Source: a virus
Taxonomy: Duplodnaviria > Heunggongvirae > Uroviricota > Caudoviricetes
Length of the DNA stretch: 12,231 nucleotides
Direction: 5' to 3' (one strand)
Virus record (IMG/VR): IMGVR_UViG_2645727901_000013
Numbering within the stretch: position 1 is the first letter of the stretch; each line of letters begins with the position of its first letter. Positions 7,230-11,380 of this stretch are shown here, piece by piece. Under the pieces are notes generated by a model that saw only the letters and a list, made by a program, of their open reading frames with translations, had not been told where the DNA came from and ran no database searches. The position numbers were made by a program, and so were the translations under genes.

Positions 7230-7420
7230 GGACGCACCTCCGCCGTAGTTACGTATTTAACCGGGCTACCTTTCATTGAGATGGTTTCACACATCTCTGC
7301 CGCTTTCAGTTCCGCTGTTTTTCTGGATTTATAGCGACGGTGCCAGACAGATACATCCGTGCGAACTGATACATCGTTTCTGTATTCCGTAGTGGAGATG
7401 ATGATTTCGTAACTAATCAT
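7226..7420 (-). CDS. Hypothetical protein (64 aa)
   Basis: Track ORF; start overlaps the stop of the Rha-like gene (7417-7420). No recognisable motif. Confidence 0.45.
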   Translation of the reverse strand: MISYEIIISTTEYRNDVSVRTDVSVWHRRYKSRKTAELKAAEMCETISMKGSPVKYVTTAEVRP

Positions 7421-8265
7421 GGGCGAACCTCCTTGTCAGAACCATTCAGCCTGGAATCAACAAGTGCAGCGCCAAAAACAGCATCACCAACACGGTCGTA
7501 CAGTTTGCTAGCCAGCGGAGATTCAACGGCCTTAAGCATTGGATAAAGCTGGCTTGTCCAGATTTGATGGATTTCACGCAAATGCAGGTATACGCCTCTG
7601 GCGTTTCGTGCGACAGCTGACATATCAACCGCGTCAGCACCAGATAAATTCTTCTCCATCTGGTTAAAGGCGTTGATGTATGCCTCTTTGAACCGGGCTG
7701 CACGTTTGCCAGTAAAGCCCATAGCAAGGAACGCGAAGCCATCGCGGGTGATTTGATAGCAAGGTAGTTTGCGGCCTGTGCAATCGGTGTAATCACTGGG
7801 CTGAAAATTCAGCTCAGTGAATTCAACAGAGCACTCAAGCGTCTGGATTTTTTGAATAACGTTTTTGTGCTGCTTGCAGAAATATTCGGCAACGGCCAAA
7901 GAAGAGGTAACAGCCTTCCCATGGATAACATCAATTTTAGAGTGAGTTTGGGTAGGGGTGGTTGCCATAGTGACATCCTCATGTGCGAATTTTGAAAACT
8001 CACCACATGGGACGCCAATCACAGAGGTGGTGAGACGTACAGGGTTGGCGTAACCGGTCGCACATGACCCCGGCGCATCTTTCGATGCCCCTGCACGCCC
8101 CACCATAATTTGGATGTGAGGAAACGTGCGCAAAAAAACCGCTGAAGCGCGGTTATGCGCATGTGCGAATTTCAGGACGCCAATCCCGGCACCCGCTTTA
8201 TAAGGTGCGGAGACAGTGTAACGTCCCGAAATTGCAGAATCAATATTTGGTCTTGAAATGATCAT
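7417..8265 (-). CDS. Phage regulatory protein, Rha family (N-terminal start uncertain: 8265 or internal ATG at 7963)
   Basis: Central region GKAVTSSLAVAEYFCKQHKNVIQKIQTL…YQITRDGFAFLAMGFTGKRAARFKEAYINAFNQME matches the Rha-domain pattern as I recall it. The ATG at 7963-7961 (MATTPTQ…) has a good GAGGAT Shine-Dalgarno 7 nt upstream, whereas ATG 8265 has none. However, the frame is open from 8265 and contains an in-frame internal repeat, so the long form cannot be excluded. Confidence 0.7.
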   Translation of the reverse strand: MIISRPNIDSAISGRYTVSAPYKAGAGIGVLKFAHAHNRASAVFLRTFPHIQIMVGRAGASKDAPGSCATGYANPVRLTTSVIGVPCGEFSKFAHEDVTMATTPTQTHSKIDVIHGKAVTSSLAVAEYFCKQHKNVIQKIQTLECSVEFTELNFQPSDYTDCTGRKLPCYQITRDGFAFLAMGFTGKRAARFKEAYINAFNQMEKNLSGADAVDMSAVARNARGVYLHLREIHQIWTSQLYPMLKAVESPLASKLYDRVGDAVFGAALVDSRLNGSDKEVRP

Positions 8266-8348: not shown

Positions 8349-8374
8349 GAGCCGGGTTACTCCCGGCTTTTTTT
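8349..8374 (+). terminator. Intrinsic terminator oriented for the plus strand (antisense to the early operon); oop-like
   Basis: Seen in sequence: stem GCCGGG (8351-8356), loop TTACT, CCCGGC (8362-8367), then 7 T (8368-8374) on the plus strand. On the minus strand the hairpin is not followed by a U-tract. Lies between the two minus-strand Rha-like genes, the position of the lambda oop terminator. Confidence 0.6.
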
Positions 8375-9081
8375 CATCGCTGCCAACCAATAACCTGAAA
8401 TAACCCCATTTTCGGGTGATACCAGCGAGTCCCTCGCGGTTCTGCTTCCTCCATAACCCGATAAAAAGCAGCCATAAACGGTTCCACAGCAACAATTGCG
8501 CGACGTGACAACAATCCGTCCGGCGTCATGAACTCATGTGTGTCTGTAGGAATTTGATAGGCGTTCACCAGATTGCGGCATTTATCATCTGACAAACCGG
8601 TTTTTGCTTTCAGTTGGCGATATCCGGCATAGCCCTCACGAATAGTGCCCTTTTTAATTTGCTCGACTGTTTCAGCAACGTGGCTGACTTTTTCTTCCAC
8701 CTGAGTGATCCGTTTCTGTTGGCGAACGGCTTCAAGAGCCATCGCGGCAACCATTTCGATTTCGCTCATTGGCTTACGGATCTGTTCTTCCAGTTCGCGC
8801 CAGCGATCTACCAGGCGAGCTGTGAATTCAGGACAGAGCTGTGCGACGACAATGATGCTGTCGCGCTTACCTCGTTCACCTTCGAATACATACGCGCTAG
8901 AAAATCGGCGAGGCCCAAGTGATTGTTTATTCTCAATTTCCACAGTCTGTGGAAATTGGATGATTCCCTTTTTAGCCAGTGTTTCAATAGTTCTCTTAAC
9001 ACTATCTGGTCGGCTTCCCACCAGCTCTGCGATCTCAACGCTGGTCATGGATGCTTTGCCGTTAAAAATTGCGGTGTTCAT
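8374..9081 (-). CDS. Phage regulatory protein, divergent Rha-like (cII-position gene)
   Basis: 235-aa ORF whose start overlaps the cro-like stop (9078-9081). N-terminal TSVEIAELVGSRPDSVKRTIETL…YVFEGERGKRDSIIVVAQL follows the same residue pattern as the Rha domain in the next gene (SSLAVAEYF..HKNVIQKIQTL…ITRDGFAFLAMG). Assignment by pattern comparison only. Confidence 0.55.
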   Translation of the reverse strand: MNTAIFNGKASMTSVEIAELVGSRPDSVKRTIETLAKKGIIQFPQTVEIENKQSLGPRRFSSAYVFEGERGKRDSIIVVAQLCPEFTARLVDRWRELEEQIRKPMSEIEMVAAMALEAVRQQKRITQVEEKVSHVAETVEQIKKGTIREGYAGYRQLKAKTGLSDDKCRNLVNAYQIPTDTHEFMTPDGLLSRRAIVAVEPFMAAFYRVMEEAEPRGTRWYHPKMGLFQVIGWQR

Positions 9082-9368
9082 TGTTTATCTCCTGCGTGTA
9101 TTCCATCCGCTCTGTGTGGTGAACTTGGATTTAGGCTTTTGCGTAACAAGTTAGGAATTCCATCTTCAGGGTGAGGATAAAGATCTGGCCTTAAGCCATG
9201 AGGCGTAACCTTCCATGCAACTACTTCACATACTCGTAAAACGAAACGAGCAGGAATTGTGCTTTTTGAAAACCACTGATTCACCGCTTGCGGCGTCACA
9301 CCAAGATTTCGCGCTATGGCATTTTGCGCAATTAATGCACGAAGTTTGTCGTAATCATTTCCTTCCAT
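9078..9368 (-). CDS. Cro-like HTH regulator (Cro/YdaS-type), first gene of the early rightward operon
   Basis: Divergent from the CI-like gene across a 133-bp AT-rich region. Contains ARNLGVTPQAVNQWFS, a Cro/CI-type HTH signature comparable to lambda Cro LGVYQSAINKAI. No strong SD at the 9368 start, so the exact start is uncertain. Confidence 0.7.
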   Translation of the reverse strand: MEGNDYDKLRALIAQNAIARNLGVTPQAVNQWFSKSTIPARFVLRVCEVVAWKVTPHGLRPDLYPHPEDGIPNLLRKSLNPSSPHRADGIHAGDKQ

Positions 9369-9501
9369 AACAAAGCACCAATATTAACTTTATAAATCAA
9401 GAATACATCAAGTTTAAATTAACATGCAAGTTACAAAAGGATCGAATACACTAAAATCAAGTAAAGATTTATCCTTGTAAAGAAACCCACAGGATTTGGT
9501 C
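9369..9501. promoter_or_regulatory. Immunity switch region (OR-like) between divergent cro-like and cI-like genes, with repeated ATCAAG-containing motifs
   Basis: Seen in sequence: AAATCAAG at 9394-9401 and 9454-9461, ATCAAGTTTAAATT at 9407-9420, ATCAAGTAAAGATT at 9456-9469, GAATAC at 9401-9406 and 9443-9448. Individual promoters and operator boundaries could not be resolved by eye. Confidence 0.5.
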
Positions 9502-10191
9502 ATGAAGAACGTCAAAAACACGGAAAATCGAATAGCCGCGATGCTGAAAGCAAAAGGATGGACTCAGGCTCAACTGGCCCGCAAGTTAGGTGTGAGTGCG
9601 CAATCAGTGCAGTACTGGACAACAGGAAAAACATTTCCACGGAGTGATAAGCTCGCGCATTTATCAGAGATTAGCGGTTATCCACAATCCTGGTTCTTAG
9701 GTGAAGACTCCTCACCAACCTTTTCCTCGCAAGAGAAACACCAGACAAGAACAGATAGCGTCGTATTTAATGTCCTTGATGTTGAGTTTAGTTGCGGTGA
9801 TGGAACTCATGTCCGTGGTGACTTGATAGATGTAGTGCGCTCAATAGAACTTGATCCTGAATATGCCCGACGTCTTGTTGGAAATCGGGCATTCAAAAAT
9901 ATAGAAATAGGTAACGCCAGAGGAGACAGTATGGCTCCCACAATCTCACCTGGCGACCTTCTTTTTCTTGATAAGACAGTAACTTATTTTGATGGCGATG
10001 GTATTTATGCATTTTGTTTTGATGGAGAATGCTACGTGAAAAGGCTTCAAAAAATTGGAAGCAAAATCATGGTGTTATCTGATAACCCCAATTATCAACC
10101 ATGGAGCATCGAAAAAGAGGGGTTAGCTCTGCTTTATATCCAGTCTAAAGTGATCTCATCAGTACCATTCAACATAAACAGATTTGGTTAG
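9502..10191 (+). CDS. CI-like prophage repressor: N-terminal XRE-type HTH plus C-terminal S24 (LexA-like) autopeptidase domain
   Basis: HTH: KGWTQAQLARKLGVSAQSVQYWTTGKTFP. S24 catalytic Ser in GDSMAPT and Lys in YVKRL; candidate Cys-Gly cleavage site in EFSCGDG (as in UmuD). ATG at 9502 has AGGAT 6 nt upstream; the track start at 9496 is a TTG. Followed by a strong terminator. Confidence 0.9.
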   Translation: MKNVKNTENRIAAMLKAKGWTQAQLARKLGVSAQSVQYWTTGKTFPRSDKLAHLSEISGYPQSWFLGEDSSPTFSSQEKHQTRTDSVVFNVLDVEFSCGDGTHVRGDLIDVVRSIELDPEYARRLVGNRAFKNIEIGNARGDSMAPTISPGDLLFLDKTVTYFDGDGIYAFCFDGECYVKRLQKIGSKIMVLSDNPNYQPWSIEKEGLALLYIQSKVISSVPFNINRFG

Positions 10192-10202
10192 TCTTTGATT
10201 TT

Positions 10203-10225
10203 AACGGGCTTTGCCCGTTTTTTTT
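10203..10225 (+). terminator. Rho-independent terminator downstream of cI-like gene
   Basis: Seen in sequence: AACGGGC (10203-10209), loop TTT, GCCCGTT (10213-10219), T-run of 8 (10218-10225), 12 nt after the cI stop. Confidence 0.8.
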
Positions 10226-10255
10226 CTGCCTGAAATATACGATATCAATTTTTTC

Positions 10256-10284
10256 TTGACAGCCTGTTTCCCAAAACATAATAT
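10256..10284 (+). promoter_or_regulatory. Near-consensus sigma70 promoter driving the accessory cassette downstream of cI
   Basis: Seen in sequence: TTGACA (10256-10261), 17-bp spacer, TAATAT (10279-10284). An ATCAAGTTATAATT-like motif (reverse orientation, 10294-10307) just downstream resembles the OR motif at 9407-9420, so repressor control is possible (inference). Confidence 0.55.
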
Positions 10285-10337
10285 CGCACCATCAATTATA
10301 ACTTGATTTGATTCAATTTAAAATTGTTGGCGGATAT

Positions 10338-10886
10338 ATGAAGACACTAAAAGCAACTCCAGAAACAACTAATTTTATCAACTGCGGCTGTGTTACGCTT
10401 AAGGGCTTAGAACTTGATTCCTTTGCATTAAATATTGCAAATTTGCTAAGTGCTGTACGCACATTCCATCTTCTGGATTGTGCTCGCTCAAAGGAACTGG
10501 GCATTGAGGTAATGGAATTTATCCATGAATATGCTCTATCTGCTGCTTCTCCTGCACAACAAAAACAATCCTTCCCTGAAAGCTGGCTGGTTAACCTTCG
10601 CACCCAACGCGAAGCCTGCGGCTTAACAACCGCCGAACTCGCCAGGCTGCTCGATCTCGATGAAGAAATTATCATCCAGTGGGAGAGCGGAGAGTATGAA
10701 CCAACTATCAGTATGCTTATCCCACTGGCAAATATTCTTGGCTGCGATCCGATGTGCCTGTTAACTGGTGAGGTTACTCCTCCGGAGCAACCAAAAAGTG
10801 AGGAGCAGCAACACCATGACGCATCTCAACAAGTTTGCCCCTTATCTCGCGAAGCTCTTCTGCGGAAGAACCAATACCAATGGTGA
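10338..10886 (+). CDS. Two-domain protein: unknown N-terminal domain plus C-terminal XRE-family HTH
   Basis: C-terminal LRTQREACGLTTAELARLLDLDEEIIIQWESGEYEPTISMLIPLANILGCDPMCLLTGE is a textbook Cro/CI-type HTH_3 segment. I prefer ATG 10338 over the track's TTG at 10308. The last ~35 codons overlap two other ORFs, so the 3' end is uncertain. N-terminal ~95 aa unassigned. Confidence 0.6.
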   Translation: MKTLKATPETTNFINCGCVTLKGLELDSFALNIANLLSAVRTFHLLDCARSKELGIEVMEFIHEYALSAASPAQQKQSFPESWLVNLRTQREACGLTTAELARLLDLDEEIIIQWESGEYEPTISMLIPLANILGCDPMCLLTGEVTPPEQPKSEEQQHHDASQQVCPLSREALLRKNQYQW

Positions 10887-11014
10887 CATAATCGCCGCTT
10901 CGCCCTTCAAGGTACATGCGAACATTTTTATCAATCATTGCGGAAACAGTCTCAATATGAAAACACTTCTGAGACTCGCTATATAGCAGAACATATAAGT
11001 CAGCTGAGGAAGCC

Positions 11015-11380
11015 ATGAAAAAGTTCGAAAACATAACTGTTCTCCATGTTGATGACTTTGATTATACAAACCCGGAACTTCTCCCGGAGGTTGTAAAGGC
11101 AATGGATGTTGCCGATATAGTGATTAGAGAAAAGAGAATTGTCAAAAACAGGCTCGCATGCACTTCAGGAGCAATGACAGAAACAACCTCACAGCAAGAT
11201 AATTACGAAGGCATTTGTCTGGAGCCTGATTCATTTGCGGTAAATGTTTATCATTTATTGCATGCAACACAGGTATTACATATGTCCAGTAATCACGAAA
11301 CGAAAACACTCGGCAGCGAAATTCTGAGTTTTGCATGTGAGTATACAAAAGCTGCTGCCGAAAAAGAATTAGCGCAATAA
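11015..11380 (+). CDS. Hypothetical acidic protein (121 aa)
   Basis: ATG at 11015 preceded by GAGGAAG with about 4-nt spacing; frame open for 121 codons in an AT-rich region. No recognisable motif. Confidence 0.55.
   Translation: MKKFENITVLHVDDFDYTNPELLPEVVKAMDVADIVIREKRIVKNRLACTSGAMTETTSQQDNYEGICLEPDSFAVNVYHLLHATQVLHMSSNHETKTLGSEILSFACEYTKAAAEKELAQ

Follow-up and report, generated by a model that had tools for sequence, protein, structure and literature searches.

The locus and its genes

The window, by which we mean the whole 12,231-nucleotide stretch of viral DNA that was analysed (IMG/VR record IMGVR_UViG_2645727901_000013), carries a divergent pair of regulatory genes. A cro-like gene, the first gene of the rightward early operon and on the minus strand here, is separated from a plus-strand cI repressor gene by a 133-bp gap that holds three of the symmetric sites described below (Table 1). 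Past cI lie an intrinsic terminator, whose stem-loop is conserved in most lineages, and a promoter flanked by further sites. The first gene of the operon that this promoter heads encodes a 182-aa helix-turn-helix (HTH) protein. Between 9000 and 10950 the window matches Escherichia phage PhiR49_2, a prophage induced from ECOR13, at 99.4% identity. Identity falls to approximately 78-81% with a group of Stx2a- and Stx2d-converting phages and with phage phi467, whose cI genes are 88-94% identical to that of the window. We found this immunity type in 136 of 5426 complete E. coli genomes.

The strong promoter past cI, TTGACA-17-TAATAT, had been named a cassette promoter in a preliminary description of this DNA. 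Our promoter scan recovered it (10256, 10284), but the name does not fit. In PhiR49_2 all genes from this promoter to xis and int are co-directional with none on the opposite strand between them, and since the promoter heads an operon of that reach, we assign it as the equivalent of PL rather than as the promoter of an isolated cassette. The region is thus oriented as in lambda.

The cI product has the features of an S24 autocleaving repressor: a Peptidase_S24 domain, a Ser/Lys dyad and a Cys-Gly site in the linker. A PDB sequence search matched UmuD/LexA over residues 138-207, and Ser143 (in GDSM), Lys180 (in KRL) and Cys98-Gly99 are invariant in six relatives. Judged by sequence comparison, CI is not close to any characterised repressor. 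The best named phage repressors are those of mEp460 (~38% identity) and phi80 (~28%), within a nearest range of 28-39%, and the PDB search yielded nothing beyond generic LexA/UmuD matches and weak similarity to the 434 repressor.

Table 1. Genes, predicted operators, promoters and terminator of the control region, in window coordinates; site scores are from the weight matrix described in the text.
Feature	Position	Strand	Sequence or composition	Remarks
Roi	8374-9081	-		PhiR49_2 annotation
cro-like gene	9078-9368	-	96 aa, YdaS/P22_Cro-type HTH	Pfam PF15943 (1.4e-12) and PF14549; annotated Cro in PhiR49_2
OR1-like operator	9377-9393		ACCAATATTAACTTTAT	13.6-14.2 bits; weak here; just downstream of candidate PR start
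Lone half-site	9396-9401		ATCAAG	17-mer 9396-9412 scores 4.3 bits
Candidate PR	9402-9429	-	-35 TTGCAT (9429-9424), 16-bp spacer, -10 TGTATT (9407-9402)	Predicted
OR2-like operator	9407-9423		ATCAAGTTTAAATTAAC	20.7-21.1 bits
Candidate PRM -10	9452-9457	+	TAAAAT	Promoter scan; predicted
OR3-like operator	9456-9472		ATCAAGTAAAGATTTAT	19.3-19.5 bits; overlaps candidate PRM -10 and start
cI repressor gene	9502-10191	+	229 aa, N-terminal HTH_3, C-terminal S24 autopeptidase	Pfam PF01381 (4.9e-8) and PF00717 (4e-17); annotated cI in PhiR49_2
Intrinsic terminator after cI	10203-10227 (stem-loop 10203-10219)	+	7-bp GC-rich stem and T-run	Terminator scan
OL2-like operator	10244-10260		ATCAATTTTTTCTTGAC	18.4-19.0 bits; right arm forms PL -35
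PL-equivalent promoter	10256-10284	+	TTGACA-17-TAATAT	Promoter scan; 10/12 consensus match; -10 at 10284
OL1-like operator	10291-10307		ATCAATTATAACTTGAT (ATCAA-TTATAAC-TTGAT)	22.5-23.0 bits; perfect 5+5 arms; covers predicted PL start
Possible OL3	10312-10328		TTCAATTTAAAATTGTT	Marginal, 12.4-12.9 bits
182-aa protein gene	10338-10886	+	N-terminal part unknown, single HTH_3 domain	Pfam PF01381 (3.1e-10); 'L10'-like hypothetical protein in PhiR49_2

A 17-bp symmetric site in both control regions

The preliminary description had pointed to a shared 14-bp motif, ATCAAGTTTAAATT at 9407-9420 matched by AATTATAACTTGAT, the reverse complement of ATCAAGTTATAATT, at 10294-10307. Both strings lie where they were placed. 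They are the first 14 bases of 17-mers at 9407-9423 and 10291-10307, and the repeated unit is a 17-bp site of two-fold symmetry, ATCAA-N7-TTGAT, with the consensus ATCAAGTT-T-AACTTGAT and conserved arms ATCAA and TTGAT. We dropped the 14-bp definition, which had the right register and fell three bases short; the arms ATCAA and TTGAT complete the palindrome. The motif had been described as not cleanly palindromic, and at its full 17 bp it is a palindrome with perfect arms at 10291-10307. Because the site is palindromic, the 'reverse orientation' that had been ascribed to the second copy carries no meaning, while the match itself stands.

Matches to ATCAA-N7-TTGAT have no mismatch at 10291, one at 10244 and at 9456, and two at 9377, 9407 and 10312. 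Further ATCAAG copies had been reported beside the first motif. Both strings are present, at 9396-9401 and 9456-9461, and the second belongs to the OR3-like site. The other, proposed as a copy at 9394-9406, we rejected as an operator, as it is a poorly scoring and non-conserved half-site that is broken by an inserted T in phi467 and absent in the distant lineages. Two sites had been overlooked, one at 10244-10260 over the -35 element and the weak one at 9377-9393.

A search for over-representation in the window, which the preliminary description had proposed as a check, gave 15 matches to the 14-mer with at most three mismatches where 3.9 were expected, and none of 200 shuffles reached 15. The loose palindrome pattern with at most two mismatches gave 15 matches across the whole window against 8.2 expected, about a twofold excess. 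We then scored the window with a 17-bp palindromic weight matrix built only from the sites of three distant relatives, whose cI is 74-79% identical; these came from a scan of one genome per species and belong to Pseudocitrobacter faecalis, an Enterobacteriaceae isolate and Citrobacter youngae. The top six matches begin at 10291, 9407, 9456, 10244, 9377 and 10312, all in the two intergenic regions, with window scores given as a range of 13.6-22.5 bits. Under a first-order Markov model set to the base composition of those regions (30% GC), 0.04-0.23 matches are expected where six were seen, and none of 5000 simulations reached six.

The same six sites rank first by weight matrix in the complete 41-kb PhiR49_2 genome, so the motif is not one that is spread at similar frequency through AT-rich phage DNA. 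Four of them are strong, at 19-23 bits against a background maximum of 12.4 bits, and the OL1-like site is the best match both in the window and in the whole genome. The OR1-like site (~14 bits) and the putative OL3 (~13 bits) score near the best background score in PhiR49_2, 12.4.

Conservation of the sites across relatives

An IMG/VR scan with cI alignment added 80 loci, for a total of 87 with 66 distinct flank pairs, all sharing this cI type. The 87 loci retain the five main slots at conserved spacings: 29-31 bp from OR1 to OR2, 49-50 bp from OR2 to OR3 and 46-48 bp from OL2 to OL1. The arms of OR2 (ATCAA/TTAAC) and of OL1 are invariant in 87 of 87 loci, in the sense that all 87 match at the expected place, since the OR2 and OL1 slots were found by their arm patterns, and the figure is not a count of variability. 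Four centre positions of OR2 vary. The OL2 slot, 46-48 bp upstream of OL1, is kept in 86 of the 87 loci. Variation was seen at 11 of 50 arm positions and at 27 of 35 centre positions (Fisher p = 6e-7).

The distant lineages hold the same arrangement. Downstream of cI, each of the three distant relatives has the perfect palindrome ATCAAGTTTAACTTGAT at OL1 and, exactly 47 bp upstream of it, ATCAAGTTTAACTTGAC, which overlaps a TTGACn -35 element. Their cro-cI gap contains three sites, spaced 30-31 and 50 bp apart, and the OR1 slot that is weak in the window is filled there by strong sites such as ATCAAGCTATAATTGAT and ATAAAGTATAACTTGAT. Only the phi467 subgroup has a strong site in the OL3 slot (GTTAATTTTAAATTGAT, 19.4), and the Stx2_14040 and distant groups have none; a reading of 10312-10328 as OL3 is weak and doubtful. 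In alignments of nine lineages, conservation is confined to the operators, the PL -35, a TAnnnT -10 with the base after it, a TAAAAT before OR3 and an ATGCAAG element, while the leaders, the spacer of PL and the stretch beyond OL1 have diverged.

Promoters at the two regions

The PL-equivalent promoter is interleaved with its operators. The right arm of OL2, TTGAC, forms the -35 together with the next A, the -10 follows after 17 bp, and OL1 starts six bases past the -10, over the predicted start. This layout of TTGACn, 17 bp, TAnnnT, 6 bp and OL1 is kept in all lineages, with a diverged spacer sequence.

On the cro side, the placement of PR is provisional. The candidate in Table 1 has weak hexamers and was kept only as the best positionally conserved option. 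Its -35, TTGCAT, is the reverse complement of ATGCAA at 9424-9429, part of an ATGCAAG that lies beside OR2, outside the operator, and is invariant in all nine lineage representatives. The spacer would coincide almost exactly with OR2, which would place OR1 at about +2 to +18 as a counterpart to OL1 at PL. The candidate is among the top three on the minus strand in six of seven relatives and always holds the same position relative to OR2, with TATTAT, TGTAAT or TATCCT as its -10 in relatives. Two other versions of PR were rejected: TTGATG-19-TAATAT for its 19-bp spacer, and TTTAAA-18-TATAAA as unconserved outside the E. coli clade.

The candidate PRM is marked by a TAAAAT or TGAAAT that holds a constant place, 4 bp ahead of OR3, in every lineage. 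Its -35 is poor (GTTACA, 9430-9435, in the window only), and a promoter of this kind overlapping OR3 would fit an autoregulated, perhaps activator-dependent promoter. We rejected a PL-like build of PRM, TTAACA-17-TCGAAT, which occurs in the E. coli clade only, in favour of the conserved TAAAAT. The centre of OR2 would lie near -49 from the PRM start, not at lambda's -42, and we therefore do not claim activation of PRM.

Which protein the sites belong to

Several tests of a lambdoid switch gave positive results: divergent cI and cro genes with operators between them, a PL with the same operator, symmetric sites constrained in their arms, and co-variation of the sites with cI/cro. From these we conclude that the window very probably contains the immunity region of a lambda-like E. 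coli prophage, with 17-bp CI operators at OR and OL. The preliminary description had suggested that one repressor acts at OR-like and OL-like sites and so places the downstream genes under immunity control, and the conservation across 87 loci and the PhiR49_2 operon support this. CI and Cro are inherited together in every locus examined, so the sequence data do not separate the two as the binder. By analogy with characterised lambdoid phages, in which CI and Cro use the same operators, we take the sites to be CI operators that Cro probably binds as well, as a dimer; we infer binding, and any preference of either protein among the sites, from the site patterns.

The preliminary description had offered the second HTH protein (10338-10886) as another binder, one that would autoregulate its own promoter and also act at the cI/cro switch. 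That protein does have a good HTH_3 domain, and its gene directly follows the best site. However, in 12 of the 87 loci, spread over at least three lineages, OL2 and OL1 are retained although no homologue of the 182-aa protein lies within 1 kb downstream. Phage phiP27 gives the reciprocal case. Its L10 protein is 77% identical to the 182-aa protein over 81 aa, the HTH domain, but we did not find an ATCAA-N7-TTGAT site in the phiP27 region upstream of L10 or in its switch; its two control regions share a motif of their own, CCAAAGTATCA, paired with a different cI (L11). Loss of the HTH gene with OL2 and OL1 retained, together with this swap, indicates that the motif goes with the cI/cro module. 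We consider binding by the 182-aa protein exceedingly unlikely; on this comparison the protein is a predicted target of the control and not a binder of the sites. A purely fortuitous likeness between intergenic regions, with no shared function, has next to no probability. Both regions are about 30% GC and the loose pattern is only about twofold enriched window-wide, but the local-composition simulations never reached six sites, the six best matches of a whole genome all fall inside the two regions, and slots and spacings are kept in 87 loci with arms fixed amid diverging flanks.

The sites could instead be bound by Cro alone or mainly by Cro, with CI recognising another sequence. The motif and Cro vary together just as the motif and CI do, and the Cro HTH is retained among the relatives. 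Against this, all characterised lambdoid switches have operators common to CI and Cro, we saw no further repeated, symmetric and conserved motif in the two control regions, and sites over the PL -35 and start are what a lysogenic repressor needs; we rate the proposal as very improbable. A further reading, in which the PL-equivalent promoter and the HTH gene are a self-contained moron or defence cassette rather than the early-left operon, and the motif marks only a recombination junction, is highly unlikely. A terminator ahead of the promoter and a downstream gene that differs among lineages, a sign of mosaicism, would suit a cassette, but lambda too has a terminator between its immunity transcript and PL, the PhiR49_2 genes to xis and int lie on one strand without interruption, and the promoter-operator geometry is conserved whichever gene comes next.

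Comparison with known switches

The CI-operator arrangement resembles that of lambda in several respects. Three pseudo-symmetric 17-bp operators lie between divergently transcribed cI and cro genes, the leftward early promoter past cI has operators of the same type, the repressor joins an HTH domain to a LexA-like autocleaving domain, and a terminator stands between cI and PL. It differs in its parts and in its geometry. The operator sequence (ATCAAGTTTAACTTGAT) is unrelated to that of lambda, CI is not detectably close to lambda CI, and the probable cleavage site is Cys-Gly rather than Ala-Gly. In place of N, the first PL gene encodes an HTH protein; in Pfam it matches HTH_3-type families only, and no N antiterminator was found in that position. 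In lambda, P22 and 434, adjacent operators lie 6-7 bp apart and are bound cooperatively in pairs. Here the OR operators are separated by 13 and 32 bp and the two firm OL operators by 30 bp (start to start 30, 49 and 47 bp). OL2 and OL1 stand on either side of PL rather than next to each other, and OR2 appears to fill the PR spacer.

The Stx2 phage 933W also has a lambdoid immunity region, of Stx phages, with two clear OL operators as here. In 933W, OL3 and cooperativity are absent and a match to the consensus need not predict operator affinity (PMC3317979). Given 933W, adjacency at 6-7 bp is a lambda-specific detail and not a requirement of lambdoid switches, and non-adjacent or non-cooperative operation in both 933W and this phage is plausible. 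The two differ in repressor and in operator sequence, and binding has been measured in 933W whereas the sites here are known from sequence alone. With phiP27 the window shares the gene order of cro-like gene, cI-like gene and L10-type HTH gene (the L10-L11-L12 region) and the logic of one motif common to both control regions; the cI (L11) and the shared motif are different. A literature search by operator strings and phage names turned up no description of these operators and no binding, footprinting or reporter results on this type of repressor, and a survey of Stx phage regulatory regions did not define operators (BMC Genomics 2022).

A model for the switch

In a lysogen, CI on OL2 and OL1 would block RNA polymerase at PL, and a repressor dimer on either site should be enough to exclude the polymerase. 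On the other side, CI on OR2 and OR1 would block PR, the cro-side promoter. OR3, overlapping the PRM -10, would provide negative autoregulation of cI when CI levels are high. The Ser143/Lys180 pair and the invariant Cys98-Gly99 in the linker suggest that CI undergoes RecA-stimulated self-cleavage, probably at Cys98-Gly99, which would release both lytic promoters together. PL would then drive the leftward early operon, from the HTH gene through xis and int. The exact positions of PR and PRM in this scheme are predicted ones, with starts near 9394 (minus strand) and 9464 (plus strand) and that of PL near 10291 (plus strand), and any cooperativity would be as well.

More tentatively, the locus may exemplify a lambda-like switch with a non-lambda geometry that holds across genera. 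At each lytic promoter one operator would cover the start and a second would lie 30 or 47 bp off, over the spacer or the -35, with OR3 49-50 bp from OR2. Repression and cI autoregulation might then dispense with cooperativity between neighbouring sites, as in 933W, or use short DNA loops that join non-adjacent sites, and the invariant ATGCAAG beside OR2 could be an extra control element. We regard this combination as possible, though on balance doubtful.

The operator set and promoter arrangement given here were worked out purely by computation, for an immunity type of which we found no description in the literature searched. The whole is ordinary textbook lambdoid immunity wiring with a previously undescribed operator sequence, and it leaves the general understanding of such switches unchanged. 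The predicted sites may be used for immunity-group typing, and in the related Stx2a and Stx2d phages repressor control governs induction of the toxin phage.

Sequences shared by and flanking the operators

The operators OR1 and OL1, predicted 17-bp sites in the cro-cI gap and at the early promoter PL downstream of cI, lie within a 27-nt direct repeat (70% identity) in which both are directly preceded by CACC. Its complement at OR1, GGTG, is a possible ribosome-binding site for cro, and at OL1 CACC coincides with the predicted PL start. In most lineages OL1 is preceded by CACC, or by AACC/AATC. OR2, the second predicted operator in the gap, is adjoined on its right by ATGCAAG, which lies outside the 17-bp site and is unchanged in an alignment of all nine lineage representatives, chosen from 87 loci sharing this cI type. 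Read on the minus strand, its TTGCAT is a candidate −35 for PR, the cro-side promoter. ATGCAAG also resembles the ATCAAG half-site with one G added.

Positions of the features discussed
Feature	Position	Strand	Remarks
Rha/Ash-like gene	7417-8265		Ash + Rha domains
Operator-matrix match	7930-7946		within Rha/Ash-like gene
Roi (annotated)	8374-9081	minus	weak Rha/winged-helix match
Repeat, OR1 copy	9367-9393		
ATGCAAG	9424-9430		
cI Cys98-Gly99	9793-9798		
Repeat, OL1 copy	10281-10307		
TTTAAA-16-TATAAT promoter-like	10295-10322	minus	antisense towards cI; 10/12 match
First PL gene (HTH)	10338-10886		
86-aa ORF	10774-11034	minus	opposite strand, overlaps 3' end of HTH gene

The antisense promoter-like sequence takes its −10 from the AT-rich middle of OL1, so it probably arises incidentally from the base composition of the operator. 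In a scan of the window, the match inside the Rha/Ash-like gene (ATCAATTTTAGAGTGAG) ranked seventh against the operator matrix at 11.5 bits; it is at background level, with 0.8 matches of at least 10 bits expected in the window.

Gene content and the repressor

The product of the first PL gene consists of an N-terminal part of ~85 aa and an HTH_3 domain common to L10 of phage phiP27, and the Stx2 phage versions of this protein have 242-245 aa and two HTH domains each. Lambda carries N at the same place. A Pfam search found no match for the overlapping 86-aa ORF, which is unannotated in PhiR49_2, a phage 99.4% identical to the window, and it is therefore probably not a gene. On the other side, the two Rha-type regulator genes come next after cro, a place held in lambda by cII, O and P; in PhiR49_2 the O-, DnaC- and helicase-type replication genes come after both.

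Judging from its sequence, cI probably cleaves itself between Cys98 and Gly99, and the surrounding EFSCGDG is unchanged among relatives down to 75% identity. UmuD also has a Cys-Gly cleavage site, whereas lambda CI and LexA have Ala-Gly.

A possible operator variant

In one relative, L016 (IMGVR_UViG_2526164649_000006), the T-run of OL2, the other predicted operator at PL, has a 1-bp deletion (ATCAATTTTT-CTTGAC). The deletion would leave OL2 shorter and displace the −35. Either the homopolymer was misread in sequencing, or this relative may carry a naturally mutated OL2.
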